Origin: Stegostoma tigrinum
Lineage: Eukaryota
DNA length: 64,000 bases
Assembly: GCF_030684315.1 (NCBI RefSeq)
Contig: NC_081367.1
Location: 52,801,351 to 52,865,350 of the forward strand
Direction of reading: 5' to 3'
Shown here piece after piece: positions 17,563-57,949 of this stretch. Within the stretch, counting starts at the first letter, position 1; each line of letters starts with the position of its first letter. The position numbers and the translations under genes are program-made. Under the pieces are notes generated by a model. That model worked only from the letters and a program-made list of their open reading frames with translations, had not been told where the DNA came from and made no database searches.

Positions 17563-18645
17563 CTAAAACAGAATTGCTGGAAATGCTCAGCAGGTCCAGC
17601 AGCATTCTGCGAATAAAAATATCAGAGTTAACATTTCGGAATCCGGTGATCCTCCCTCAGAACGAATGGCAGCTTGGAAAATTGCAGTTTATATGCAGAA
17701 AATCGAGAGGTAGGGAGTCAACGAGAGAGCAAGACAGCAAGAAGAACAGTAGGACAGACAAAGGAGTTAATAACGATCTGGCTTGGAGAGTGAACAGCTG
17801 TTAATGGGGACTGTTAGTGGCCAACAATAGGTAGCATGTAATGGCAGGCTGTGATAACAAGGCCTGGTGTGTGGAGTAGGGGGCTAGGGGCCTAGGACAC
17901 AGGAGAATTTAGGCCCTAAAATTATTGAACTCCATATTAAGTCCAGAGAGCTGCAGGGTACCCAAGCAGAAAGTGAGGTGTTGTTCTTCCAACTTACGTT
18001 GAACTTCAATGGGACACTGCAGCAAACTAGACACAGCTGTTAGCTGGGAAACAGAGTGGTGTGTTAAAAGTGACAGTCAACAGGTAGCTCAGGGTCTTTT
18101 TTATGAGCAGAACATAGGTGTTCTGCGAAGTGGTCACCCAGTCTATGCTATGTTTCCCCAGTGCGGAGGTGACCACATTGTCAGCAGCAAATGCAGTAGA
18201 CTAGATTCTGGAAAATACAGGTGAAGTTTTGCTTCACCTGCAAGATATATTTGGGTCCTTGGAAAGTGGGGGTGGAGGAGGTATACGGGCAGGTGATGCA
18301 GCTTCGCTGGTTACAGGGGACGGTGGTGTGTGTACGCATGTGAACAAACAGTAGACCAAGATGTCCCAGAGGGAATGGTCTTGCGGAAGACGGGCAGGGC
18401 AGGGCAGGGCAGGGCAGGGGAATGGGTGTCTAGTGGTGGCATCTTGCTGGAAGTGGCAGAAATGACATCTGATGATCTTCTGGATGTACATGCTGGTGGG
18501 ATGGTAGGTACGATCAGTTCTGAGGAAGGGTCACTGGACCCAAAACGTTAACTCTACAATATTTTTTTCCACAGATGCTGCCAGACCTGCTGAGCTTATC
18601 TTTTGTCTCTGAATTACAGCATTAACAGTTCTTTCAACTTTTAAT
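17563..18645 (-). mobile_element. Older PLE (second family) with inverted pLTRs
   Basis: Minus ORF IIRCHFCHFQQDATTRHPFP...DHSL is homologous to the PLE ORF; pLTR inverted at 17563-17663 and forward at 18516-18645 (CTGAGGAAGGGTCACTGGACCCAAAACGTT). Confidence 0.8.
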
Positions 18646-22272: not shown

Positions 22273-25200
22273 TCCTCCCCAACACCCTGCCCCAGAACTC
22301 ACTCACCGTCCCTCCCCAACACCCTGCCCCGTAACTCACTCACCGTCCCTCCCCAACACCCTGCCCCGTAACTCACTCACCGTCCCTCCCCAACACCCTG
22401 CCCCAGAACTCACTCACCGTCCCTCCCCAACACCCTGCCCCAGAACTCACTCACCGTCCCTCCCCAACACCCTGCCCCGTAACTCACTCACCGTCCCTCC
22501 CCAACACCCTGCCCCGTAACTCACTCACCGTCCCTCCCCAACACCCTGCCCCGTAACTCACTCACCGTCCCTCCCCAACACCCTGTCCCGTAACTCACTC
22601 ACCGTCCCTCGCCAACATCCTGCCCCGTAACTCACTCACTGTCCCTCCCCAACACCCTGCCCCGTAACTCACTCACCGTCCCTCCCCAACACCCTGTCCC
22701 ATAACTCACTCACCGTCCCTCCCCAACACCCTGCCCCAGAACTCACTCACCGTCCCTCCCCAAAACCCTGCCCCATAACTCACTCACCGTCCCTCCCCAA
22801 CACCCTGCCCCGTAACTCACTCACCGTCCCTCCCCAACACCCTGCCCCGTAACTCACTCACCGTCCCTCCCCAACACCCTGCCCCAGAACTCACTCACCG
22901 TCCCTCCCCAACACCCTGCCCCAGAACTCACTCACCGTCCCTCCCCAAAACCCTGCCCCATAACTCACTCACCGTCCCTCCCCAACACCCTGCCACAGAA
23001 CTCACTCACCATCCCTCCCCAACACCCTGCCCTGTAACTCACTCGCCGTCCCTCCCCAACATCATGCCCCGTAACTCACTCACCGTCTCTTTCCAACACC
23101 CTGCCCCATAACTCAGTCACCGTCCCTCCCCGGCGCCCTGCCCCATAACTCACTCACTGTCCCTCCCCGGCGCCCTGCCCCAAAACCCACTCGCCGTCCT
23201 CTCCAACACCCTGCCTCAAAATTCACTCGTTGTCCCTCCCCAAAACCCTGCCCCAAAACTCACTCACCGTCCCTCCCCAACACCCTGACCCATAACTCAC
23301 TCAGCGTCCCTCCCCAAAACCCTGCCCCAAAACTCACTCACCGTCCCTCCCCAACACACTGCCCCAGAACTCACTCACCATCCTTCCCCAACACCCTGCC
23401 CCGTAACTCACTCACCATCCCTCCCCAACACCCTGCCCCGTAACTCACTCACCGTCCCTCCCCAACACCCTGCCCCGTAACTCACCCACCGTCCCTCCCC
23501 AACACCCTGCCCCGTAACTCACTCACCGTCCCACCCCAACACCCTGCCCCGTAACTCACTCACCGTCCCTCCCCAACACCCTGCCCCGTAACTCACTCAC
23601 CGCCCCTCCCCAACACCCTGCCCCGTAACTCACTCACCGCCCCTCCCCAACACCCTGCACCGTAACTCACTCACCGTCCCTCCCCAACACCCTGTCCCGT
23701 AACTCACTCAGCGTCCCTCCCCAACACCCTGCCCCAGAACTCACTCACCGTCCCTCCCCAACACCCTGCCCCGTAACTCACTCACCGTCCCTCCCCAACA
23801 CCCTGCCCCGTAACTCACTCACCGTCCCTCCCCAACACCCTGTCCCGTAACTCACTCACCGTCCCTCCCCAACACCCTGCCCCGTAACTCACTCACCGTC
23901 CCTCCCCAACACCCTGCCCCGTAACTCACTCACCGTCCCTCCCCAACACCCTGCCCCGTAACTCACTCACCGTCCCTCCCCAACACCCTGCCCCGTAACT
24001 CACTCACCGTCCCTCCCCAACACCCTGCCCCGTAACTCACTCACCGTCCCTCCCCAACACCCTGTCCCGTAACTCACTCACCGTCTCTTCCCAACACCCT
24101 GCCCCGTAACTCACTCACCGTCCCTCCCCAACACCCTGTCCCGTAACTCACTCACCGTCCCTCGCCAATATCCTGCCCCGTAACTCACTCACTGTCCCTC
24201 CCCAACACCCTGCCCCGTAACTCACTCACCGTCCCTCCCCAACACCCTGCCCCGTAACTCACTCACCGTCCCTCCCCAACACCCTGTCCCATAACTCACT
24301 CACCGTCCCTCCCCAATATCCTGCCCCAGAACTCACTCACCGTCCCTCCCCAACACCCTGCCCCAGAACTCACTCACCGTCCCTCCCCAACACCCTGCCC
24401 CAGAACTCACTCACCGTCCCTCCCCAAAACCCTGCCCCATAACTCACTCACCGTCCCTCCCCAACACCCTGCCACAGAACTCACTCACCATCCCTCCCCA
24501 ACACCCTGCCCTGTAACTCACTCGCCGTCCCTCCCCAACATCATGCCCCGTAACTCACTCACCGTCTCTTTCCAACACCCTGCCCCATAACTCAGTCACC
24601 GTCCCTCCCCGGCGCCCTGCCCCATAACTCACTCACTGTCCCTCCCCGGCGCCCTGCCCCAAAACCCACTCGCCGTCCTCTCCAACACCCTGCCTCAAAA
24701 TTCACTCGTTGTCCCTCCCCAAAACCCTGCCCCAAAACTCACTCACCGTCCCTCCCCAACACCCTGACCCATAACTCACTCAGCGTCCCTCCCCAAAACC
24801 CTGCCCCAAAACTCACTCACCGTCCCTCCCCAACACACTGCCCCAGAACTCACTCACCATCCTTCCCCAACACCCTGCCCCGTAACTCACTCACCGTCCC
24901 TCCCCAACACCCTGCCCTGTAACTCACTCACCGTCCCTCCCCAACACCCTGCCCTGTAACTCACTCACCGTCTCTTCCCAACACCCTGCCCCATAACTCA
25001 CTCACTGTCCCTCCCCGGCGCCCTGCCCCAAACCCGCTCGCCATCACTCCCTGGCACCCTGACACAAAACCAGCTCGCCGTCCCTCCCCGGCACCCTGCC
25101 CCAAAACCCACTCGCCGTCCTCTCCAACACCCTGCCTCAAAACTCACTCGTTGTCCCTCCCCAACACCCTGCCCCAAAACCGACTCGCCGTCCCTCCCCG

Positions 25201-26530
25201 GCACCCTGCCCCAAAACCCGCTCACCGTCCCTCCCCGGCGCCCTGCCCCAAAACCCGCTCGCCGTCCCTCCCCGACGCCCTGCCCCAAAACCCACTTGCC
25301 GTCCTTCCCCGGCGCCCTGCCCCAAAACCCACTCGCCGTCCTTCCCTGGCACCCTGCCCCAAAACCGACTCGCCGTCCCTCCCCGGCGCCCTGCCGCAAA
25401 ACCCACTCGCCGTCCTTCCCTGGCGCCCTGCCCCAAAACCCGCTCGCCATCCCTCCCCGGCACCCTGCCCCAAAACCCGCTCGCCATCCCTCCCCGGCAC
25501 CCTGCCCCAAAACCGACTCGCCGTCCCTCCCCGGCGCCCTGCCGCAAAACCCACTCACCGTCCTTCCCTGGCGCCCTGCCCCAAAACCCGCTCGCCATCC
25601 CTCCCCGGCACCCTGCCCCAAAACCCGCTCACCGTCTTGCCCCAGCGCCCTGCCCCAAAACCCACTCGCCGTCCCTCCCCAGCGCCCTGCCCCAAAACCC
25701 ACTCGCCGTCCCTCCCCGGCGCCCTGCCCCAAAATCCACTCGCCGTCCCTCCCCAGCGCCCTGCCCCAAAACCCACTCGCCGTCCTTCCCCGGCGCCCTG
25801 CCCCAAAACCCACTCGCCGTCCCTCCCCGGCGCCCTGCCCCAAAACCGACTCACCGTCCCTCCCCGGCGCCCTGCCCCAAAATCCACTCGCCGTCCCTCC
25901 CCAGCGCCCTGCCCCAAAACCCACTCGCCGTCCCTCCCCGGCGCCCTGCCCCAAAACCCACTCGCCGTCCCTCCCCGGCGCCCTGCCCCAAAACCCACTC
26001 GCCGTCCCTCCCCAGCGCCCTGCCCCAAAACCCACTCGCCGTCCCTCCCCGGCGCCCTGCCTCAAAACCGACTCGCTGTCGCTCCCCAGCGCCCTGCCCC
26101 AAAACCCACTCGCCGTCCCTCCCCGGCGCCCTGCCTCAAAACTCACTCGTTGTCCCTCCCCGGCACCCTGCCCCAAAACCCGCTCACCGTCCCTTCCCGG
26201 CGCCCTGCCCCAAATCCCGCTCGCCGTCCCTCCCCGGCGCACTGCCCGTAAACCCGCTCACCGTCCCTTCCCCGCGCCCTGCCCCAAATCCCGCTCGCCG
26301 TCCCTCCCCGGCGCACTGCCCCAAATCCCGCTCGCCGTCCCTCCCCGGCGCACTGCCCGAAAACCCGCTCGCCGTCACTCCCCGGCACCCTGCCCCAAAA
26401 CCCACTCGCCATCCTCTCCAACACCCTGCCTCAAAACTCACTCGTTGTCCCTCCCCAACACCCTGCCCCAAAACTCACTCACTGTCCCACCCTCTCACCC
26501 TGTCTGAAAACTCACTCACTGGCCCTTTCC
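22273..26530. repeat. 37-bp minisatellite, ~115 units
   Basis: Unit CCTCCCCAACACCCTGCCCCGTAACTCACTCACCGTC (period 37, e.g. 22321 vs 22358). Distal variant CCTCCCCGGCGCCCTGCCCCAAAACCCACTCGCCGTC from ~25000. Confidence 0.98.
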
Positions 26531-27640
26531 AACACCCTCCCTCACACAGCCTGCCTCAAAACTCAATCACTGTCCCTTTCTTATTCACTGGTTCCCACTC
26601 AATTTCTTTCCCTTCCTCCTAATCTGGTACAGTACCATCCTCAGATTTTGGCTCCACATCAATCATTATTGTTCACTGCCTCCAAATCAATCACTATTCA
26701 TTCTTCCTTCCAGCTCAATCAGCATCCATCCCTGCTTCTGCCTGAGTCACTGCCCCTATATGCTTACGAATGAATCATGATTTTCAGGACGGCATAATTA
26801 ATGGAATGCCACACGGATCACTGCTGGAGTCTTGATTTTTTAACACTATATATAAATAACTTGGCTGACATAAGTGAATCTGTTAGGACCAAGTTTGTAA
26901 GTTACACAACAAATAAGCTAGTAGTGAGGATGATACAATCAATCAGTTGGGGAATATAAACAGGTTAAGTGGCAAAACGTAACAAATGGGAGATGTGAGG
27001 AAATGTGAGGTTATACACTTTAGAATGGAGAGAAGAGCTGAATATTATTTAAATGGGGAATGACAGCAAAATATTGCAGATAGATTTGGTGATTCTTGTA
27101 CAGGAAACACAAAAAGTTCGCATTAAATTTCATTGGGTAACAGGGAAGTCAAATGGAATGTTGGCCTTTGTTTCAAAGTGAATGGCATATAAAGGTAAGG
27201 AAGTTTTCTAAAACTATACATGGCACTACTCAGACCACAGCTGGAAGATGACAAACAGTTTTAGTCCCCTGATCGAAGTAAAGATATATGAGCGTTGTAG
27301 GAAGTCCAGTAAATGTTACCATAAGACATAGGAGCAGAAATTGGGCCATTCAGCCCATCGAGTCTGCTCTGCCATTCAATCAAGGCTGATAAATTCCTCA
27401 ACCCCATTTTCCTGCTTTCTCCTCTTAATCCTTGATAATCAAGACAATCTCAGTCTTAAATGTACTCAATGACCAGCCTTCTGTGGCAGTGAAATCCATA
27501 GATTCACCACTCTCTGGCTGAAATGTTCATTTGGTTGATTCTAGATCTGAGGGGCATTTTCTTCTGAGGTGAGGTTGAGTAGTTTGGACTTGTACTCATT
27601 GGCATTTTCAAGAATGATAGCATACCTTATTGAAACACAG

Positions 27641-28594: not shown

Positions 28595-28791
28595 AATAAA
28601 AACCAAAAGAACTGTGGATGCTGTCAATCAGGAACAAAAACAAAGTTGCTGGAAAAGCTCAGCAGGTCTGGCAGCATCTGTGGAGGAGAAAACAGAGTTA
28701 ACATTTCGGGTCGGTGACCCTTCCTCAGAAGTGATGCTGCCAGATCTGCTGAGCTTTTCCAGCAACTTTGTTGTTGTTATTGTAGTAGTAG
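28595..28791. mobile_element. Hairpin PLE mini-element (second family) inserted in a CR1
   Basis: Inverted arms AAAGTTGCTGGAAAAGCTCAGCAG / CTGCTGAGCTTTTCCAGCAACTTT; hammerhead-like CUGAGGAAGGGUCACCGACCCGAAA on minus; TSD TAGTCAATCTATGG at 28581-28594 and 28792-28805. Confidence 0.85.
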
Positions 28792-29796: not shown

Positions 29797-30910
29797 GTCC
29801 TCACGCATCACCCCATTAATCTCCAGATTCAATGCTTCATTCTCCACCACTTCTGCCACCTACAATCTGACCCCACTACCAAGGATACATTTCCCTACCC
29901 ACCCAGATCTGCCTTCCGGAGGGACCACTCTCTCCACAACTCCCTCACCCATTCCACACTTCCCACTAGCGCCACCATCCCTGGCACTTTTCCTTGCAAC
30001 TGCAGGTGCTACACCTGCCCCTACACCTCCCCCCTCACCTCCAAGCCAGACCCAAAGAAAACCTTCCACATCAAACAGATGTTCACCTGCACATCCGCTA
30101 ATGTGATATATTGTATCCGCTGTTCACAATCTGGCCTCCTCTACATCGGGGAAATTAAGCGGAGGCTTGGAGACCGCTTTGTGGAACACCTACGTGTGGT
30201 TCCCAGCCGCGAACCATTTCAATTACGCGCCCCCCCCCCCCACTCCTTGGATGACATATCCATCCTGGGCCTCCTGCAGTGCCACAATGATGCCACCCAA
30301 AGGCTGAAGGAACAGCACCTCATAGTCCGCTTGGGAACCCTGCAGCCCAATGGTATCAATGTGGATTTCACAGCTTCAAAATCTCCCCTCCCCCTACTGC
30401 ATCTCAAGGCCAGCCCAGCTCATCCCTGCCTCCTTGACCTGTCCATCTCTTCTACCGCCTATCCACTCCTCCTCCCTCATTTCCCACCTATTCGCCTCAT
30501 CCCCACCTTCTTGCCCTCCCTGCTGACTAACCCCCATCCCAACTCCCTACCTACACTCACCTTTACTGGCTTCATTCCCACCTTCCTTGACCTACCCATC
30601 TTCTCTCCATCTATCTACTCCTCTATCCGCCTTATATCATTGCCTCCCCCTCAATTTCTTTCAGACTCCCTTTCCCCTCTCCCATTTCTGTGGAAGGGTC
30701 CAGACCCGAAACGTCAGCATTCCTGCTCCTCTGACGCTGCTTGACCGGCTGTGTTCATCCAGCTCTACACCATGTTATCTCAGATTCCAGCATCGGCAGT
30801 TCCTACTAACTCTATGTCAACCCTCCCTCTCATCCCCGCCTCCTTGACCTGACACAACCTGTCCATCTTCTCTCCGACCTATCTGCTCCTCCCACCTCTC
30901 TGGCCACTAT
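29797..30910 (+). mobile_element. Degenerate PLE with GIY-YIG and pLTR
   Basis: ORF 30079: ANVIYCIRCSQSGLLYIGEIKRRLGDRFVEHL; hammerhead-like CTGTGGAAGGGTCCAGACCCGAAACGTC at ~30688-30715. Confidence 0.88.
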
Positions 30911-31110
30911 GACTCATGCACTCCACCCTTCCTTCCCTCCCTTTAGTTCAATCTCTTTATCCCTCACTTCCTGTTCCACAATTACACTTATCCTCCTTCC
31001 CTGACTCCAACATAATTACTGCAAAATTCTCTAACTCAATCACTCTACTCAATTGCCCTGATCTCTCTATACAACTCAACAACTTCTTCCGTCTTTCTCT
31101 GATTCAATCA

Positions 31111-31243
31111 GTGATAATGGGAACTGCAGACGCTGGAGAATCCAAGATAACAAAGTGTGGACCTGGATGAACACAGCAGGCCAAGCAGCATCTCAGGAGC
31201 ACAAAAGCTGACGTTTCGGGCCTAGAACCTTCATCAGAAAAAG
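31111..31243 (-). mobile_element. Solo PLE pLTR+tail mini-insertion with hammerhead motif
   Basis: Reverse complement of the PLE terminus including CUGAUGA...GAAACGUC (31237-31210); 17-bp TSD TTTCTCTGATTCAATCA at 31094-31110 and 31244-31260. Confidence 0.9.
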
Positions 31244-31469
31244 TTTCTCTGATTCAATCACTGTTCCTTCCTCTCTCTAATTCAACCACTCACTCTCTCG
31301 TTAATTCAGTACCTAATCCACTCTCAAATCATTTGCTGGAAAAATCCCCACCCTTCTTACCTTTTTTAACTCGATCATTTCACTCCTTGCCCCCTCCCTT
31401 GTCTAACGCAAATACTCACTCGCTGTTTCCCTCTGTACCTCACCCGTTCCTTCCCAACCCATGAGCTAT

Positions 31470-43355: not shown

Positions 43356-43558
43356 ATAACAAGCTGTAGAGCTGGCTGAACACAGCAGGCCAAGCAGCAC
43401 CAGAGGAGCAGGAAAGTTGACGTTTTGGGTCTGGACCCTTCTGAAATCTGAAATGTCAGCTTTCCTGCTCCTCTGATGCTGCTTGGCCTGCTGTCTTCTT
43501 CCATCTCTACACCTTGTCATCTCAGATTCTTCAGCATCGGCAGTACTTACTATCTCAG
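43356..43558. mobile_element. Hairpin PLE mini-element
   Basis: Inverted pLTR followed by forward pLTR+tail; TSD TTTCCAACATGGG at 43343-43355 and 43559-43571. Confidence 0.88.
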
Positions 43559-47222: not shown

Positions 47223-48920
47223 GACATAAGGCATCTGAAATTAGTATTAGTACCTGGGAGTATGATGTTATTTCTATTACTGAGACTTGGTTGAGGGAAG
47301 GGCCATATTGGCCACTAAATATCCCAGGATATGGATGCTCCAGGCATGATGGAGAGGGAGGTAAAAGGGGTGGAGGAGTTTCATTATTGGTCAAAGAGGA
47401 TATCTCAGCTATGCTGAAGGAGGGCACTGTGGGGAGACTCTAGCAGTGAGGCAACATGGGCAGAGTGCAGAAATAGGAAGGGTGTGGTAACAATGTTGGG
47501 ACTGTACTACAGGCCTCTCAACACCAAGCGGGAGATACAGGTACAAATATTTAGTCAGATTATGGAAAAATGTAGGAGCAAAAGGGTGGTGGTGATGGGA
47601 GATTTTAATTTTCCCAGCATTGACTGGGATTCACTTAGTGTTAGGGATCTAGATGGAGCAGAATTTGTACGGAGCATCCAGCAGGGTTTTATAGAGCAGT
47701 ATGTAAATAGTCCAACTTGGGAAGGGGCCATACTGGACTTGGTGTTGGGGAATGAGCTCAGCCAGGTGGTTGAAGTTTCAGTAGGGGGTTACTTTGGGAA
47801 TAGTGATCACTATTCCGTAAGTTTTAGAATACTCGTGGACAAATACGAGAGTGGTCCTAAAGGAAGAGTGCTAAACTGGGGAAAGGCCAACTACAGCAAA
47901 ATTCAGGAGGATCTGGGAAATGTGGATTGGGAGCAGCTGTTTGAGGATAAATCCATGTCTGATATGTGGGAGACTTTTAAAGAGAGTTTGATTGGAATGC
48001 AGAACAGACATGTCCCTGCGAAAATGAGTGATAGAAAGGGCAAGATTAGGGAACCAGGGATGACAGGTGAAATTGTGAGACTAGCAAAGAAGAAAAAGGA
48101 AGCATACATAAGGCCTAGGGGAGTGGAAACAGACAAAGCTTTGGAAGAATATCAGGAAAGTAGGACCAATCTGAAACGAAGAATTAAGAGGGCTGAAAGG
48201 GGTCATGAAATATCTTTAGCAAACAAGGTTAAGGAAAATCCCAAAACTTTTTATTCATACATATGGAGCAAGCGGGTAATTAGAGAAAGGGTTGGCCTAC
48301 TCGAGGACAAAGGAGGGAAGTTATGCAAGGAGTCAGAGAAAATGAGTGAGATTCTTAATGTGTACTTTGTGTCAGTATTCACTGAGGAGAGGGACATGAC
48401 GGATGTTGAGGTTAGGTTTGATTACTCTAGGTCAAGTCACCATAAGGAGGGGCGAAGTGTTGGGTAATCTAAAAGGCATTAGGGTGGACAAGTCCCCAGG
48501 TCTGGATGGGATCTATCCTAGGTTACTGAGGGAAGCGAGAGAGGAAATAGCTGGGGCCTTAACAGATATCTTTGCAGCATCCTTGAGCACAGGTGATGTC
48601 CCAGAGGACTGGAGAATTGCTAATGTTGTCCCCTTGTTTAAGAAGGGTAGCAAGGATAATTCATGTAATTATAGACCGGTGAGCCTGACATCATTGGTGG
48701 GAAGCTGCTGGAGAATATACTGAGGGATAGGATCTATTTACTTTTGGAAGAAAATGGACTTATTAGTGATAGGCAGCATGGTTTTGTGAAGGGAAGTTCA
48801 TGTCTTACCAACTTGATAGAATTCTCTGAGGAAGTGACAAAGTTGATAGATGAGGGAAGGGCTGTAGATGTCATATACATGGACGCCAGTAGGGTGTTTG
48901 ATAAGGTTCCCCATGGTACA
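47223..48920 (+). mobile_element. CR1 ORF2 segment (APE endonuclease and start of RT), truncated at both ends
   Basis: GLYYRP, VVMGDFNFPSIDW, ILDLVL, GNSDH, KSPGLDGIYPRLL, WRIANVVPLFKKG, QHGFVKGSSCLTNL. Confidence 0.93.
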
Positions 48921-51650: not shown

Positions 51651-53436
51651 CTAATGATGGAACAGTCAAAAGGAGATTCCTCAGATTCCTGCCAATCTAG
51701 CATCTGGAAGGACTTCACCACGCATCAGTCAGATGTTATATCCATGTGGATGCCTTAAGAGCTATCTAACGTCAGTGCCATGTGACATGATTTCATTGTC
51801 TCACTGCTGGTTTCACTATACTGATCGTGTAAGGTAGGTCAAGTGTTGATACTTGAAGGTGGGATCATCCAAAAGTATCACATGTACAATCACATGGATT
51901 ATGAGACATCTATTCACAAACACAAAAAGCAGGGACTGAAAAAGAATAACAATTCCCACATCAACTTTTCAGTAATCATGGGCTGCCAGTATGGTCAGCA
52001 ACAGAATCACAAACAATTGAATGCAGTCTGTACCTAGCTCATTCATTCCTGGAAACAGGGTGCCATTCAGATTTGGCAATGCATTGCTCTGTAATGAAAA
52101 CTTGGTTCAAATCCTGACCCATAGATGGATCTTCATCCTCAGAACATAGCTTACAACTCCACCCTTCTGTCTGTATCCAAGACATTCTCGCTGGCAGAGG
52201 CCATGATATGTACATCCTTGAGAAGTGTCATGTGCCTGCTTTATTCCATAGAATATCTTTCAAAGATGGTTACTGGGAGTCTACATCTTCGGCTGATTAC
52301 TGTATTCCACAAACCCATGACTGAGGCTACGTGTAAATACAATGCAGCCCATTCCTCCACCAGGACCATTGTAGAACTGATGGACTTGCTGAAAAATAGA
52401 GTTCCCAATGCTTTGAATAATCAGCTGGTCAGTCAGTGGGCAGCAGGGAGGGTGGGGGTGGAAGTGGAGACAAGCATTGCTACCTTTTTACGGCAATAGT
52501 TGCCATTGTGTTATGAGTTTAAAATGTAATGAGGCTGAGTTAATAGTACTAGTTATGGTTCTGTCTGACCTGCTGAGTTTCTCCAGCATTCTGTGTGTTT
52601 GATTCAGATTTTCTGTCATCCATAGTATTTTGCTTTGAAAGATAGCATGCTGTTAAGAGGACATTAAATTGTCTGCAAAGGGATTTAGATAGATTAAGAG
52701 AATGGCCAAAGGTTGCCCATAATGGAGGGAAAATGTGAACTTGTCCTCTTCAGTGGGAAGCGAAGCAGTGAATTACTTAAATGGAGAGAGACTGTATGTT
52801 GGGTTCTGGGTGTCCTGTACATCAATCATGAACAGATCATCATATTGAGGTAAATAATTTTCCGGTATCTGTGAAGATGTGGTCAACAGATGCTCCTGCA
52901 ACAGTCACTTAATCCACATTGACCTGAAATTCATTTGAATCCCTTCTAGAAATGGCTGCACAGGAAGGCAGTGAACGCTGATTCTACTCCATTTGTCTAC
53001 TTGATTCCTGGGTGCTGTCGCCCGGAGATTCCACACGCACGTGGACCTCTGTCAGTATGATTCCCTTAATGGAAGGATCCATGAGATCATTATTTATCAG
53101 TTTCTCTGCAACCAGGGAATGGCATATCTAAATTCTCTGTTCAACCTCATCAGGCTTTAATTTCCATGTGTCTGCCCTGGCTTCTGATGTTTATAAGTAT
53201 CTACATGATACCTTGTCTATGCCGTTTGTGGATGTTAGGAATGTGTGAGAGAGTGATTTTTTAGGTGGGTGAGTATTCACCATTTTTGTCAAGACGTGAC
53301 ATTCGGCAGCCCCTGGGGATGAAAAGGATACTTTTAATAGCCAGGTGCTTGAGCAGTATTCAGTCTAAATGCACCCAGTCATGAAATCAATTAGAAGAAA
53401 ACTGGCCGATTCTAAAACTGGCAGATAATCCTTATG

Positions 53437-54381
53437 ATAAAATGTGAGGCTGGATGAACACCCTCCAACCCCACCACACCCGGCACCTTCCCCTGCAACC
53501 GCAGGAAATGCTACACTTGTCCCCACACCTCCTCCCTCACCCCCATCCCAGGCCCCAAGATGACATTCCACATTAAGCAGAGGTTCACCTGCACATCTGC
53601 CAATGTGGCATACTGCATCCACTGTACCCGGTGCGGCTTTCTCTACATTGGGGAAACCAAGCGGAGGCTTGGGGACCGCTTTGCAGAACACCTCCGCTCA
53701 GTTCGCAACAAACAACTGCACCTCCCAGTCGCAAACCATTTCCACTCCCCCTCCCATTCTCTTGATGACATGTCCATCATGGGCCTCCTGCACTGCCACA
53801 ATGATGCCACCCGAAGGTTGCAGGAACAGCAACTCATATTCCGCCTGGGAACCCTGCAGCCATATGGTATCAATGTGGACTTCACCAGTTTCAAAATCTC
53901 CCCTTCCCCCACTGCATCCCTAAACCAGCCCAGTTCATCCCCTCCCCCCACTGCACCACACAACCAGCCCAGCTCTTCCCCCCCACCCACTGCATCCCAA
54001 AACCAGTCCAACCTGTCTCTGCCTCCCTAACCGGTTCTTCCTCTCACCCATCCCTTCCTCCCACCCCCAGCCGCACCCCCAGCTACCTACTAACCTCATC
54101 CCACCTCCTTGACCTGTCCGTCTTCCCTGGACTGACCTATCCCCTCCCTACCTCCCCACCTACACCCTCTCCACCTATCTTCTTTGCTCTCCATCTTCGG
54201 CCCGCCTCCCCCTCTCTCCCTATTTATTCCAGTTCCCTCCCCCCATCCCCCTCTCTGATGAAGGGTCTAGGCCCGAAACGTCAGCTTTTGTGCTCCTGAG
54301 ATGCTGCTTGGCCTGCTGTGTTCATCCAGCCTCACATTTTATCATCTTGGAATCTCCAGCATCTGCAGTTCCCATTATCTC
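53437..54381 (+). mobile_element. Penelope-like element (Neptune type), 5'-truncated, with short inverted pLTR piece
   Basis: GIY-YIG segment NVAYCIHCTRCGFLYIGETKRRLGDRFAEH; pyrimidine-rich 3' UTR; hammerhead motif; inverted terminal piece 53437-53460; TSD CAGATAATCCTTATG at 53422-53436 and 54381-54395. Confidence 0.93.
54251..54286 (+). ncRNA. Minimal hammerhead ribozyme motif in the PLE pLTR
   Basis: CUGAUGA (54255-54261), A, GGG UCUAGG CCC, GAAA (54275-54278), CG, UC; predicted cut after 54282; palindromic ACGU replaces helix III. Confidence 0.75.
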
Positions 54382-54571
54382 AGATAATCCTTATGTCAGT
54401 TTTACATGTGGTCAACGGGTGAAAATCTGCCCTGGTGTGTCCTTATTTCTTTAGTTTTTGCTTAGGCCTAATTTAATTTCGATGAAGTAAATCTGGGAAA
54501 GGAACATTCTACTCTAGCAGCTTTAAAAAAAATCTAATTCTGTTACCAAACTGATAAATATTTACATATTA

Positions 54572-55939
54572 GAGATAATGGGAACTGCAGATGCTGGAGA
54601 TTCCAAGATAATAAAATGTGAGGCTGGATGAACACAGCAGGCCAAGCAGCATCTCAGGAGCACAATTCCCAATTCCTCCGCCTCTGCCGCAATTCCCAAT
54701 TCCTCCGCCTCCGCCGCATCTGCTCCCACGATAAGACATTCCACTCCCGCACATCCCAGATGTCCAAGTTCTTTAAGGACCGCAACTTTCCCCCCACAGT
54801 GATCGAGAACGCCCTTGACCACGTCTCCCGTATTTCCCGCAACACATCCCTCACACCCCGCCCCCGCCACAACCGCCCTAAGAGGATCCCCCTCGTTCTC
54901 ACACACCACCCTACCAACCTCCGGATACAACGCATTATCCTCCGACACTTCTGCCATTTACAATCCGACCCCACCACCCAAGACATTTTTCCATCCCCTC
55001 CCCTGTCTGCTTTCCGGAGAGACCACTCTCTCCGTGACTCCCTTGTTCGCTTCACACTGCCCTCCAACCCCACCACACCCGGCACCTTCCCCTGCAACCG
55101 CAGGAAATGCTACACTTGTCCCCACACCTCCTCCCTCACCCCCATCCCAGGCCCCAAGATGACATTCCACATTAAGCAGAGGTTCACCTGCACATCTGCC
55201 AATGTGGTATACTGCATCCACTGTACCCGGTGCGGCTTCCTCTACATTGGGGAAACCAAGCGGAGGCTTGGGGACCGCTTTGCAGAACACCTCCGCTCAG
55301 TTCGCAACAAACAACTGCACCTCCCAGTCGCAAACCATTTCCACTCCCCCTCCCATTCTCTTGATGACATGTCCATCATGGGCCTCCTGCACTGCCACAA
55401 TGATGCCACCCGAAGGTTGCAGGAACAGCAACTCATATTCCGCCTGGGAACCCTGCAGCCATATGGTATCAATGTGGACTTCACCAGTTTCAAAATCTCC
55501 CCTTCCCCTACTGCATCCCTAAACCAGCCCAGTTCATCCCCTCCCCCCACTGCACCACACAACCAGCCCAGCTCTTCCCCCCCACCCACTGCATCCCAAT
55601 ACCAGTCCAACCTGTCTCTGCCTCCCTAACCGGTTCTTCCTCTCACCCATCCCTTCCTCCCACCCCAAGCCGCACCCCCAGCTACCTACTAACCTCATCC
55701 CACCTCCTTGACCTGTCCGTCTTCCCTGGACTGACCTATCCCCTCCCTACCTCCCCACCTACACTCTCTCCACCTATCTTCTTTACTCTCCATCTTCGGT
55801 CCGCCTCCCCCTCTCTCCCTATTTATTCCAGTTCCCTCCCCCCATCCCCCTCTCTGATGAAGGGTCTAGGCCCGAAACGTCAGCTTTTGTGCTCCTGAGA
55901 TGCTGCTTGGCCTGCTGTGTTCATCCAGCCTCACATTTT
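54572..55939 (+). mobile_element. Penelope-like element (Neptune type), 5'-truncated, with inverted pLTR+tail
   Basis: ORF 54628-55629 holds the RT C-terminal part (SQFLRLRRICS), a Cys linker (CNRRKCYTC) and GIY-YIG; inverted terminus 54572-54665; TSD AATATTTACATATTA at 54557-54571 and 55940-55954. Confidence 0.95.
55850..55885 (+). ncRNA. Minimal hammerhead ribozyme motif in the PLE pLTR
   Basis: CUGAUGA 55854-55860, helix II GGG/CCC, GAAA 55874-55877, GUC ending at 55881. Confidence 0.75.
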
Positions 55940-57949
55940 AATATTTACATATTATACTTTTTAAAAAAAAGCCCTTCATGAAGTCGATTCCAATGGCTGG
56001 AATTATGTTCTATCAGTAGAGTCACTTGGCTTAGCACTGCATAACCTATTCCATAACGTCATGCCACATGGAAAACTCTAGTCTGTAGGGAGTGGCAAAC
56101 TCGATCAAAAGATGTGCTTTTAATTCTATGCTCCTGAACTGTAACATTTGGAAATAATTTATGTTGCAAATGAGAAATACCAGAAAGGATATTCATAGGT
56201 TGCCATCTGTACTGTAGTGTATGATGTTCAGAGTTAGTTTACGCTAAACCTCCAGAGAACCTACCATCTGGTTAATGAACAGACAAAACACATTTATTAC
56301 TAAAAGGTAGCATACCTTCTTTCAAAGATTTGAAGTTGTTGTTTGAAGCGTTTCTAATAAATAATTGCCATAGCACAACTTTCGCTCAAAAAAATTGATT
56401 TTATTTTGATTTTGCCATTGTAGGTATTAGAAAATCACAACTTAGAAGCACGGCAGCTTTGTGCACACTTTGACACAGAATTTACCCTACTTCTGTGGGT
56501 GTGAATTACCACAAAATGCTAATTAGAAGAAAAGACTTTCTGACTGTTTTGCTGACCATCGGTGGAAGCTGTGCAAAAACTCCACAAAGTTATCAATCTC
56601 ACAGTATAATTCATGGAATTCTATCTGGACTGGCTTCCCACCACAAATACCTTTTCCAAATGTTCCATGGAATGTTTAACTTCCTGTTCTATGCTGGTTA
56701 TCCCTTGTGTTGAATAAATGCTGTTGTTTACTTGGGGGGATGTGTATATCTTTTTGTTAATTATAAAATGCCAAAAGCTATACGTAGCATCCTTGCCAAC
56801 CAGTAAAACAGACTCAGTATGAGGTGGTGCCTTTATTGGGGATTTTTGCCACAAAATAAGCAAAGGAAAAAGAGCCAGCACAAACATATGTAGAAAATAA
56901 TAGTGAGAAGTTGTTTCAACACCATACTGGATGCCACATTTCCCTAGGTTCCTGCTTGGCTTCACTAGTAGCTATTGCAGTACAAGCTTGTGTCCAGTCT
57001 CCTGACATTAGAAGATTTGAAAGTGACAGGCAGGAATCCTGACCAGGCTCAAAACCGTAAGGTAAATTGCCTTTTGGTATTTATTTCTGGGAAGTAGGCT
57101 CTGAAACCAACAACAATGACTGCGGTGAGAACCCCCTTTAACTAATTTTCTTGCCACACTTTTGGGAACAGTTTCATTCAGACTTGTGCCATGTAAAGGC
57201 AATGCAGATGGTCTAAACGCAAAAAACGCAGTTGATTCCTATCAGTTCAGGTGCAGAAAATGTTGTGCAGGTGGAAGACATGAAAAGAGGAAATTTGGCA
57301 CCAGCATGTGCTGAAAACAGAACAGCGGAGGTGTTTTCATAGAATCAAATGGCACTGGAGGAAGCAATTTAATCTGTGTAGATTCTGTCACATAATTCTG
57401 TCACATAAAGGATGGTAAGATCAGCAAGATTACTGAGAATGCAAACCTTACCTCAGAATCAGGCCTTTCCTTTTGTTGTAGAGTATGGTGCTTATGGTAA
57501 GGGTTTTATTGAATAATTGCCGATTTGCTAGCAGTCAGATTGGGTGCTCAATGACAATGTGCTCAGAATCATTGGCGTCTCTGAGGTGAGGCAAGAGTCA
57601 ACACAAATATATTCAATCTGAATGTGAAAGAACATGGACCAGATAGCGGGAAGGAGTGGCAATCAGGCTCCGGCCTTGTGTAAGTATATCCATTAACTTC
57701 AAGGGTACAGATAATTTACTTCTATGAATTTGATGCTACTCCCAAACAAACAATCCTTCCCTTTCCCTGCTGGTAGACTTCTCCTTTGTTCCATCGGCTG
57801 CCTTTTTTATTGTTGTTTCCAACACCATTTACCCCTCACCTGAGAAAACTGATTTAGCAGTCTGGGAATTCTGCCAGTGCTGCTCTGTCATGGGCTTCTC
57901 TGTTATGCACAAGACGTCCATGCAGTGAGTAGCTCAATGTTGACTTCAA

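Follow-up and report, generated by a model that had tools for sequence, protein, structure and literature searches.

The locus described here raises the question of whether the tiny hammerhead ribozymes in the pLTRs of Penelope-like elements (PLEs) cut RNA in the living animal, and for what purpose. The function of hammerheads in EN+ PLEs is called unclear by Craig et al. 2021 (PMC8557442). We analysed a window of 64,000 nucleotides of the Stegostoma tigrinum genome (contig NC_081367.1) that holds two young copies of a PLE family so abundant that its junctions can serve as a read-out of RNA ends. Our main reading, to which we give a probability of roughly 0.6, is that RNA of the pLTR hammerhead starts capped 32 bases upstream of the predicted cut, is copied mostly uncut, and is cut after GUC in a minority of cases.

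The cores of the two hammerheads, CUGAUGA-A-GGGUCUAGGCCC-GAAA-CG-UC at 54255-54282 and 55854-55881, are identical in sequence and predict cuts at 54282/54283 and 55881/55882. Direct reading of the letters confirms here what a sequence-only reading of the window had proposed. The catalytic core CUGANGA ... GAAA ... UH is present in type I order, with one unpaired base between positions 9 and 10.1 (A54262), a G10.1-C11.1 pair (G54263-C54274), and a palindromic 15.2-16.2 (ACGU, 54278-54281) without a helix III loop. These features support the earlier identification of a minimal type I hammerhead of a PLE pLTR in which ACGU replaces helix III. All of them are shared with the min-HHRs described by Cervera and de la Pena 2014 (PMC4209133), as are the pLTR location, the thousands of solo copies from truncated elements, and subfamilies with compensatory changes. 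Helix II, given before as 3 bp, can be drawn with 4-5 bp (GGGUC/GGCCC). Helix I is only 2 bp (CU 54253-54254 / AG 54283-54284), shorter than the 4-5 bp typical of min-HHRs in PMC4209133. To call this unusual was an overstatement, given that the same source reports a 2-bp helix I in D. virilis Penelope; it also reports low in vitro activity for min-HHR dimers. Judged by its sequence, the motif is an ordinary published min-HHR of PLE pLTRs.

The bare CTGANGA..GAAA pattern is no more frequent in the window than expected by chance (9 matches vs 6.8 expected). The pattern of helix II plus GAAA exceeds chance (6 matches vs 0.02 expected), as does CCCGAAACGT when one mismatch is allowed (10 matches vs 0.93 expected). 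An Rfam scan of the window did not report the hammerhead family. It did return miRNA-family matches at 43366-43510, which we attribute to chance, their source being a hairpin-forming pair of stubs in head-to-head orientation. In all three subfamilies of the element, the core is also preceded by a CAUY, and a GAUG follows the cut (54241-54247 and 54299-54303 in the window). By their sequence, these two could pair in read-through RNA and so prolong helix I beyond an internal loop, by only 4 bp.

The two hammerheads lie in the pLTRs of two independent 5'-truncated insertions, each with its own 15-bp target duplication (Table 1). Hence, the stretch 54200-55950, put forward before as naturally holding two motifs, is not a native tandem unit; a 93-base antisense tail lies between the two motifs. 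The GIY-YIG domains of both insertions scored under the Pfam cut-off (E 0.0028 on the left and 0.00071 on the right). The older copies named in the sequence-only reading all exist, but they are decayed, with CUGUGGA at 30696 and AAAA for GAAA at 18528. The minus-strand copy near 28710 is intact at 28704-28728 except for CpG decay. Elsewhere in the window, a C-rich minisatellite (22274-26538, 37-bp period, about 115 copies) accounts for the long repetitive open reading frames at 24554-26773, and an open frame of 349 aa that encodes an AP-type endonuclease domain (47418-48467, plus strand; PF14529, E 7.9e-11) is a LINE fragment.

Table 1. Features of the window that relate to the hammerhead-bearing element, in order of position
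Feature	Position	Strand	Content or basis
Decayed subfamily C hammerhead	18519..18600	+	AGUU/AACU helix I; AAAA for GAAA
Subfamily C hammerhead	28648..28729	-	CUGAGGA, loop ACC, GUU triplet
Older subfamily B 5'-truncated PLE	29797..30812	+	decayed hammerhead at about 30688-30715; 71% to right insertion
Solo hammerhead and tail stub	31107..31243	-	starts near RNA 5' end; 17-bp target duplication (31094-31110, 31244-31260)
Head-to-head pair of older subfamily B stubs	43366..43558	.	hairpin-forming; source of the chance miRNA-family matches
5' target-site duplication, left insertion (15 bp)	53422..53436	+	identical to 54381-54395
Inverted pLTR-tail piece, 5' end of left insertion	53434..53461	-	+35 to +62 from cut
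Left insertion, 5'-truncated PLE	53461..54382	+	zinc-finger linker, GIY-YIG endonuclease, stop 54028-54030, C-rich 3' UTR, hammerhead, tail to +98; 99.1% identity to 55060-55940 (8 differences in 881 bases)
Predicted 5' end of pLTR-driven RNA (offset -32), likely capped	54251..54251	+	5,008 genomic copy starts
Minimal hammerhead 1	54253..54284	+	sequence; min-HHR features described in PMC4209133; copy-start peak at 54283. CUGAUGA 54255-54261; extra A 54262; helix II 54263-54274; GAAA 54275-54278; ACGU palindrome 54278-54281; C17 54282; helix I CU/AG
pLTR tail	54283..54382	+	copies end preferentially at about +57 to +67 and at +94 to +99
3' target-site duplication, left insertion	54381..54395	+	
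5' target-site duplication, right insertion (15 bp)	54557..54571	+	identical to 55940-55954
Inverted pLTR tail, 5' end of right insertion	54573..54665	-	+5 to +97; 98.9% to 54288-54380
Right insertion, 5'-truncated PLE	54666..55940	+	RT thumb end, CX4CxxC linker, GIY-YIG, stop 55627-55629, 3' UTR, hammerhead, tail to about +57; sequence comparison, domain matches
Minimal hammerhead 2	55852..55883	+	identical to hammerhead 1; predicted cut 55881/55882
3' target-site duplication, right insertion	55940..55954	+	

By features of its sequence rather than by a tree, the host of the hammerhead is a very abundant Neptune-type PLE. The window copies have a C-terminal GIY-YIG domain (with the Pfam scores given above), and the CX4CxxC linker between RT and EN, of the Neptune-type CX2-5CxxC, was read straight from the translation. 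A near-complete copy elsewhere in the genome (L330) has a 952-aa ORF with an RVT_1 match that is also under the Pfam cut-off (E 1.1e-5). The C-terminal GIY-YIG, the linker, 5' truncation, the inverted 5' piece, an optional 30-40-bp tail and the pLTR hammerhead are all described for Neptune EN+ PLEs in PMC8557442. An exact 33-mer over the hammerhead has 78,083 matches (38,947 + 39,136) in the 3.2-Gb genome, far more than the motifs reported in PMC4209133 for coelacanth (about 4,000) and Xenopus (9,000), which were counted by another method. The hammerhead is downstream of the GIY-YIG ORF and, in the tandem or full-length context, the ATG lies 138 bases 3' of the cut. The 3' ends of copies cluster at about +57 to +67 and +94 to +99 in a histogram of 45 young matches; these are likely two start sites of reverse transcription. 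At about +110 to +140 from the cut (L290, L272), a branch-point-like and an acceptor-like stretch end two bases before the ORF ATG, with an acceptor-like CAG just upstream of the ATG, and the cut site reads donor-like GUCAG. An intron in the 5' UTR is possible on this evidence, as in Drosophila Penelope, which has one. A search for the intron join gave 30 matches with no shared exon end, using a pattern that excluded the join that the GUCAG donor predicts.

Conservation was assessed in 1.414 Mb of unselected sequence, with copies anchored solely on sequence 3' of the cut. Of these copies, 156 belong to subfamily A, 69 to B and 56 to C. All 11 catalytic positions are invariant across the majority sequences of the three, and the core differs only at N7 (U/A/G) and H17 (C/C/U); loop II also varies. 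The extra base after A9 and the G10.1-C11.1 pair are the same in B and C, and the ACGU palindrome is retained in all three apart from CpG decay. Helix I covaries (CU/AG, UU/AG and AGUU/AACU, i.e., 2 bp in A and B and 4 bp in C), and the sequence right after the cut diverges freely. Subfamily C corresponds to the second family recognised before by its 4-bp AGUU/AACU helix I and GUU triplet. Among individual copies of one subfamily the core is no better kept than its neighbours, and CpGs decay, as expected after insertion. The sequence-only reading had proposed to look for preferential retention of CUGANGA/GAAA across genomic copies; we saw no such preference, and the test is unsuitable, since the alignments show selection, as we read them, between subfamilies and not among copies. 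One variant of subfamily B, with about 1,900 copies (e.g., G000:C1:2395554-2395581), has one additional A directly 3' of the GUC triplet; on sequence grounds it is a distinct subfamily with altered helix I pairing.

The computed folds do not favour the active form. The minimum-energy structure is an inactive hairpin of CUGAUG with CGUCAG (-11.4 kcal/mol, z 0.0), as had been anticipated. In this hairpin, helix I has slipped by two bases, such that AG at 0/+1 pairs with C3U4 and not with the preceding CU. The monomer hammerhead is computed at only -3.6 kcal/mol, a result in line with the earlier suggestion that a partner or helper is needed. The double hammerhead is computed at -5.5 kcal/mol and two inactive hairpins at -22.8, which places the active dimer 17 kcal/mol higher. 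Pairing energy alone therefore does not favour the active form. Neither the hammerhead nor the tail folds are unusually stable (z-scores 0.0 to 1.0). We rejected the inactive hairpin as a conserved switch, given that subfamily C lacks it. We also rejected the self-complementary helix II, which would give an extended duplex computed at -38.0 kcal/mol, as a handle for dimers, as loop II lacks self-complementarity in B and C.

The record of where copies begin was then read relative to offset 0, the first base 3' of the predicted cut (54283), so that C3 of the core is at -28. Genome-wide starts were counted at 11 positions, leaving out -31 to -14, using patterns with three forced upstream mismatches followed by about 30 exact bases. 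Upstream of the cut we counted 1,965 starts at -33, 5,008 at -32, 290 at -13, 308 at -5 and 359 at -1, those at -33, -32 and -13 being undercounts given CpGs in the patterns. At and after the cut there were 2,367 at 0, 302 at +1, 377 at +2, 447 at +3 (inflated by T-run variants), 565 at +8 and 621 at +27 (a pattern of 21 exact bases, with a satellite making up 31 of the 100 matches listed). There are thus two single-base peaks, at -32 (54251) and at 0 (54283). The sequence-only reading placed the RNA end at 54283; the main end recorded in the genome is instead 54251, four bases upstream of the core (5,008 vs 2,367 starts). Of the 237 anchored copies (subfamily A and part of B) in an unselected sample of 1.41 Mb, 95 reach beyond -49, 89 start between -39 and -17, 15 between -13 and -2, three at 0 and 35 further down. 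An early reading of this sample, which took the cut site to be devoid of starts, was overturned by the genome-wide counts with their controls.

The base that precedes the -32 starts is informative. It is G, where the element has C, in 88 of the 100 matches listed. The upstream T was fixed in the count of G because many of these joins are head-to-head, where G is expected. This left 621 G against 189 A/T, i.e., 621/810 compared with a background of 32%, although 14 of 30 T-fixed loci are still head-to-head. Where target duplications are clean, G belongs to the target in three of three cases among the first 30 loci, and in the next, overlapping set it is the last base of the duplication in five of seven and outside it in two. 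A G that is part of the target reflects microhomology and is not a free additional base, which counts against cap copying; its placement is compatible with a cDNA whose last base is an additional C, paired with a G of the target. For L1/SVA, an untemplated 5' G has been attributed to cap copying (PMC3287187), and the promoter of D. virilis Penelope is internal and lacks a TATA box (PMC2377424). We regard the extra G at -32 as likely a copied cap, and 54251 as the likely capped start of the element RNA. The sequence context at -32 resembles an initiator of the TCT type.

Alternatively, reverse transcriptase might stop on reaching the border of the C-rich 3' UTR, at a bound protein or a structure, and then add an untemplated C. 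The -32 boundary does coincide with the start of the C-rich tract, and the ends spread over -39 to -17. Yet, this boundary is passed by 95 of 184 copies, and the excess of G is strong at -32 but near background at -33 (4 of the 13 matches listed after T). Copies that hold the ORF start bear on the same point. Among 30 such loci, 25 were resolved: 15 start at or after 0, and the other 10 rows (nine distinct) start upstream of -60. None of these nine read-through copies starts between -39 and -17, compared with 89 of 184 in the sample (P 0.004), and the absence of stops in this interval therefore argues against a roadblock. No copy with a long ORF starts at -32 (0/5), which counts against the simple capped-start model and is in line with a stop. 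On balance, we find a stop of the polymerase quite improbable and retain the capped start at -32. The data suggest that the stubs come from short pLTR-driven RNAs and the ORF-bearing copies from read-through RNA. Some head-to-head joins have expanded T or A runs directly before the core (sample block C11b), resembling stuttering of reverse transcriptase at a template end.

The peak at 0 required more controls. A palindromic head-to-head join at AGCT is found in 62 of the 100 matches listed at 0, making up about 60% of the peak; with such a join, ends at 0, +1 and +2 look alike, and many of these loci are counted twice. The peak could therefore arise at a relic that no longer cuts, from joining or microhomology at AGCT/AG, or from pausing of reverse transcriptase at the foot of the inactive hairpin, which sits at +1. 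Against the first of these, we estimate about 1,470 palindromic joins at AGCT, compared with about 130, 75 and 60 at three other 4-base palindromes, i.e., 11-24 times fewer, with the -13 pattern penalised by two CpGs (among 100 matches listed for each, palindromic joins were 62 at 0, 44 at -13, 24 at -5 and 10 at +27). Against pausing, the starts at +1 and +2, where it would appear, are at background. When a preceding A is excluded, 768 starts remain at 0, still twice each neighbour. Joins to host DNA made up 7/30 of the classified loci at 0 (an eighth row was dropped because inspection by eye showed a deletion in a subfamily B copy), 4/20 at -1, 5/20 at +1 and 6/20 at +2. This gives about 290 host-joined starts at 0 and a mean of 90 at the neighbours, a ratio of 3.2 (95% 1.4-6.6), which falls to 2.0 (0.9-4.1) if the excluded base is not scaled for.

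The other subfamilies replicate the cut-site peak weakly, which favours a relic. Subfamily B has 2,138 starts at 0, but 90 of the 100 matches listed are of the extra-A variant (GUC-AAG), and its removal leaves about 214 against 152 and 129. Subfamily C has 55, of which 27 resemble internal deletions, leaving 28 against 20 and 6. A relic would also agree with the unfavourable computed energy of the active fold, with the absence of hammerheads from many PLE clades according to PMC8557442, and with anole RNA-seq, in which PMC11167929 reports no reads at the cut site. The three of 237 copies that start at 0 in the unselected sample are few, a figure that counts against cleavage. It is opposed by the roughly 3-fold excess of host-joined copies at 0 and by the retention of the core between subfamilies. 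We consider a non-cutting relic unlikely. The peak at 0 suggests, as far as genomic copies can tell, that the ribozyme cuts in the living animal. A search of mostly open-access papers, covering main texts, found no published PLE junction footprints.

Cleavage might instead be the main processing step, with tandem transcripts cut to unit length and circularised, and the circles used as templates, as proposed by Cervera and de la Pena (PMC4209133) and for retrozymes. A suitable substrate exists elsewhere in the genome. On the minus strand of G000:C1:104860300-104862500 (L331), a head-to-tail array of 5.7 units of 329 bp, 99% identical, has six intact hammerheads, and comparable spacings of 322-363 bp occur among other genomic matches. 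Its unit consists of a 3' UTR piece, the hammerhead, the tail and about the first 70 bases of the ORF. By its sequence the array is retrozyme-like and a natural candidate substrate for double-hammerhead cleavage. It fits the non-LTR retrozymes of Li, Clavereau and Pollet 2026 (bioRxiv 10.64898/2026.07.22.740005), PLE-derived tandem units with type I hammerheads whose mean is 363 bp in the sole chondrichthyan sampled there. The window copies differ from these in being separate insertions of coding fragments rather than a tandem array; two or more consecutive non-coding hammerhead units, which define a retrozyme, were found only in L331 and not in the window. The array ends at the tail (+98) and not at the cut site, and uncut starts exceed cut starts (about 1,350 host-joined starts at -32, scaled from 8/30 classified loci, vs 290), which both argue against circles as the main templates, as does the dominance of uncut RNA as substrate in vitro (PMC11167929). 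Of the alternatives considered here, this one seems to us the least probable, with only a slight chance. Satellites made of the pLTR tail also occur, with at least 31 copies of a 46-bp unit and at least nine of a 208-bp unit among the matches listed (G000:C1:187869898-187870795 and 188284614-188285189; G000:C2:58043053-58044748).

The closest functional comparison is the Poseidon element PAc of Anolis carolinensis (Frangieh et al. 2024, PMC11167929), whose hammerhead is reported to cut only with its protein and whose uncut RNA is the main template. PAc and the shark element both have a hammerhead beside the ORF start, and in PAc, as probably in the shark element, the tail is set by two internal start sites of reverse transcription; extension of both DNA strands, uncut RNA as template and a ribozyme that requires help are further probable likenesses. 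The shark element differs in its Neptune-type linker and in the position of the ORF start, 138 bases after the cut compared with 26 before it in PAc. The two also differ at the cut site, where the study of PAc found no RNA-seq reads and where copies pile up in the shark.

We infer capping, cleavage and dimer formation from the sequence and the junctions, and propose the following course of events. The pLTR promoter would fire a capped RNA at -32, whose first 34 bases would be the hammerhead. With this start, that RNA would offer helix I no more than four bases at its 5' end. The RNA would rest in the CUGAUG/CGUCAG hairpin. The element's reverse transcriptase would prime at host nicks, begin in the tail (+60 or +98) and run off the RNA end, commonly at the capped end and less commonly at a cut end, which would leave stubs of 100-130 bp and head-to-head pairs. 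Pairing of two ACGU palindromes would form the double hammerhead and allow cleavage, probably helped by the PLE protein, and cleavage would strip the 32-base capped leader.

The ribozyme motif is of a familiar type, and the new part is the junction record of RNA ends, which yields two exact testable positions, 54251 and 54283. The wider interpretation is tentative, and we hold it at somewhat less than even odds. It treats the insertions as a fossil 5'-RACE that records both the capped start and GUC cleavage in vivo, with the hammerhead serving as a decapping switch of the germline, slow and dependent on a partner, that acts on the 32-base leader in competition with reverse transcription and not as obligatory processing. 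For the element, the ribozyme may thus provide slow decapping or release, without being required for maturation.
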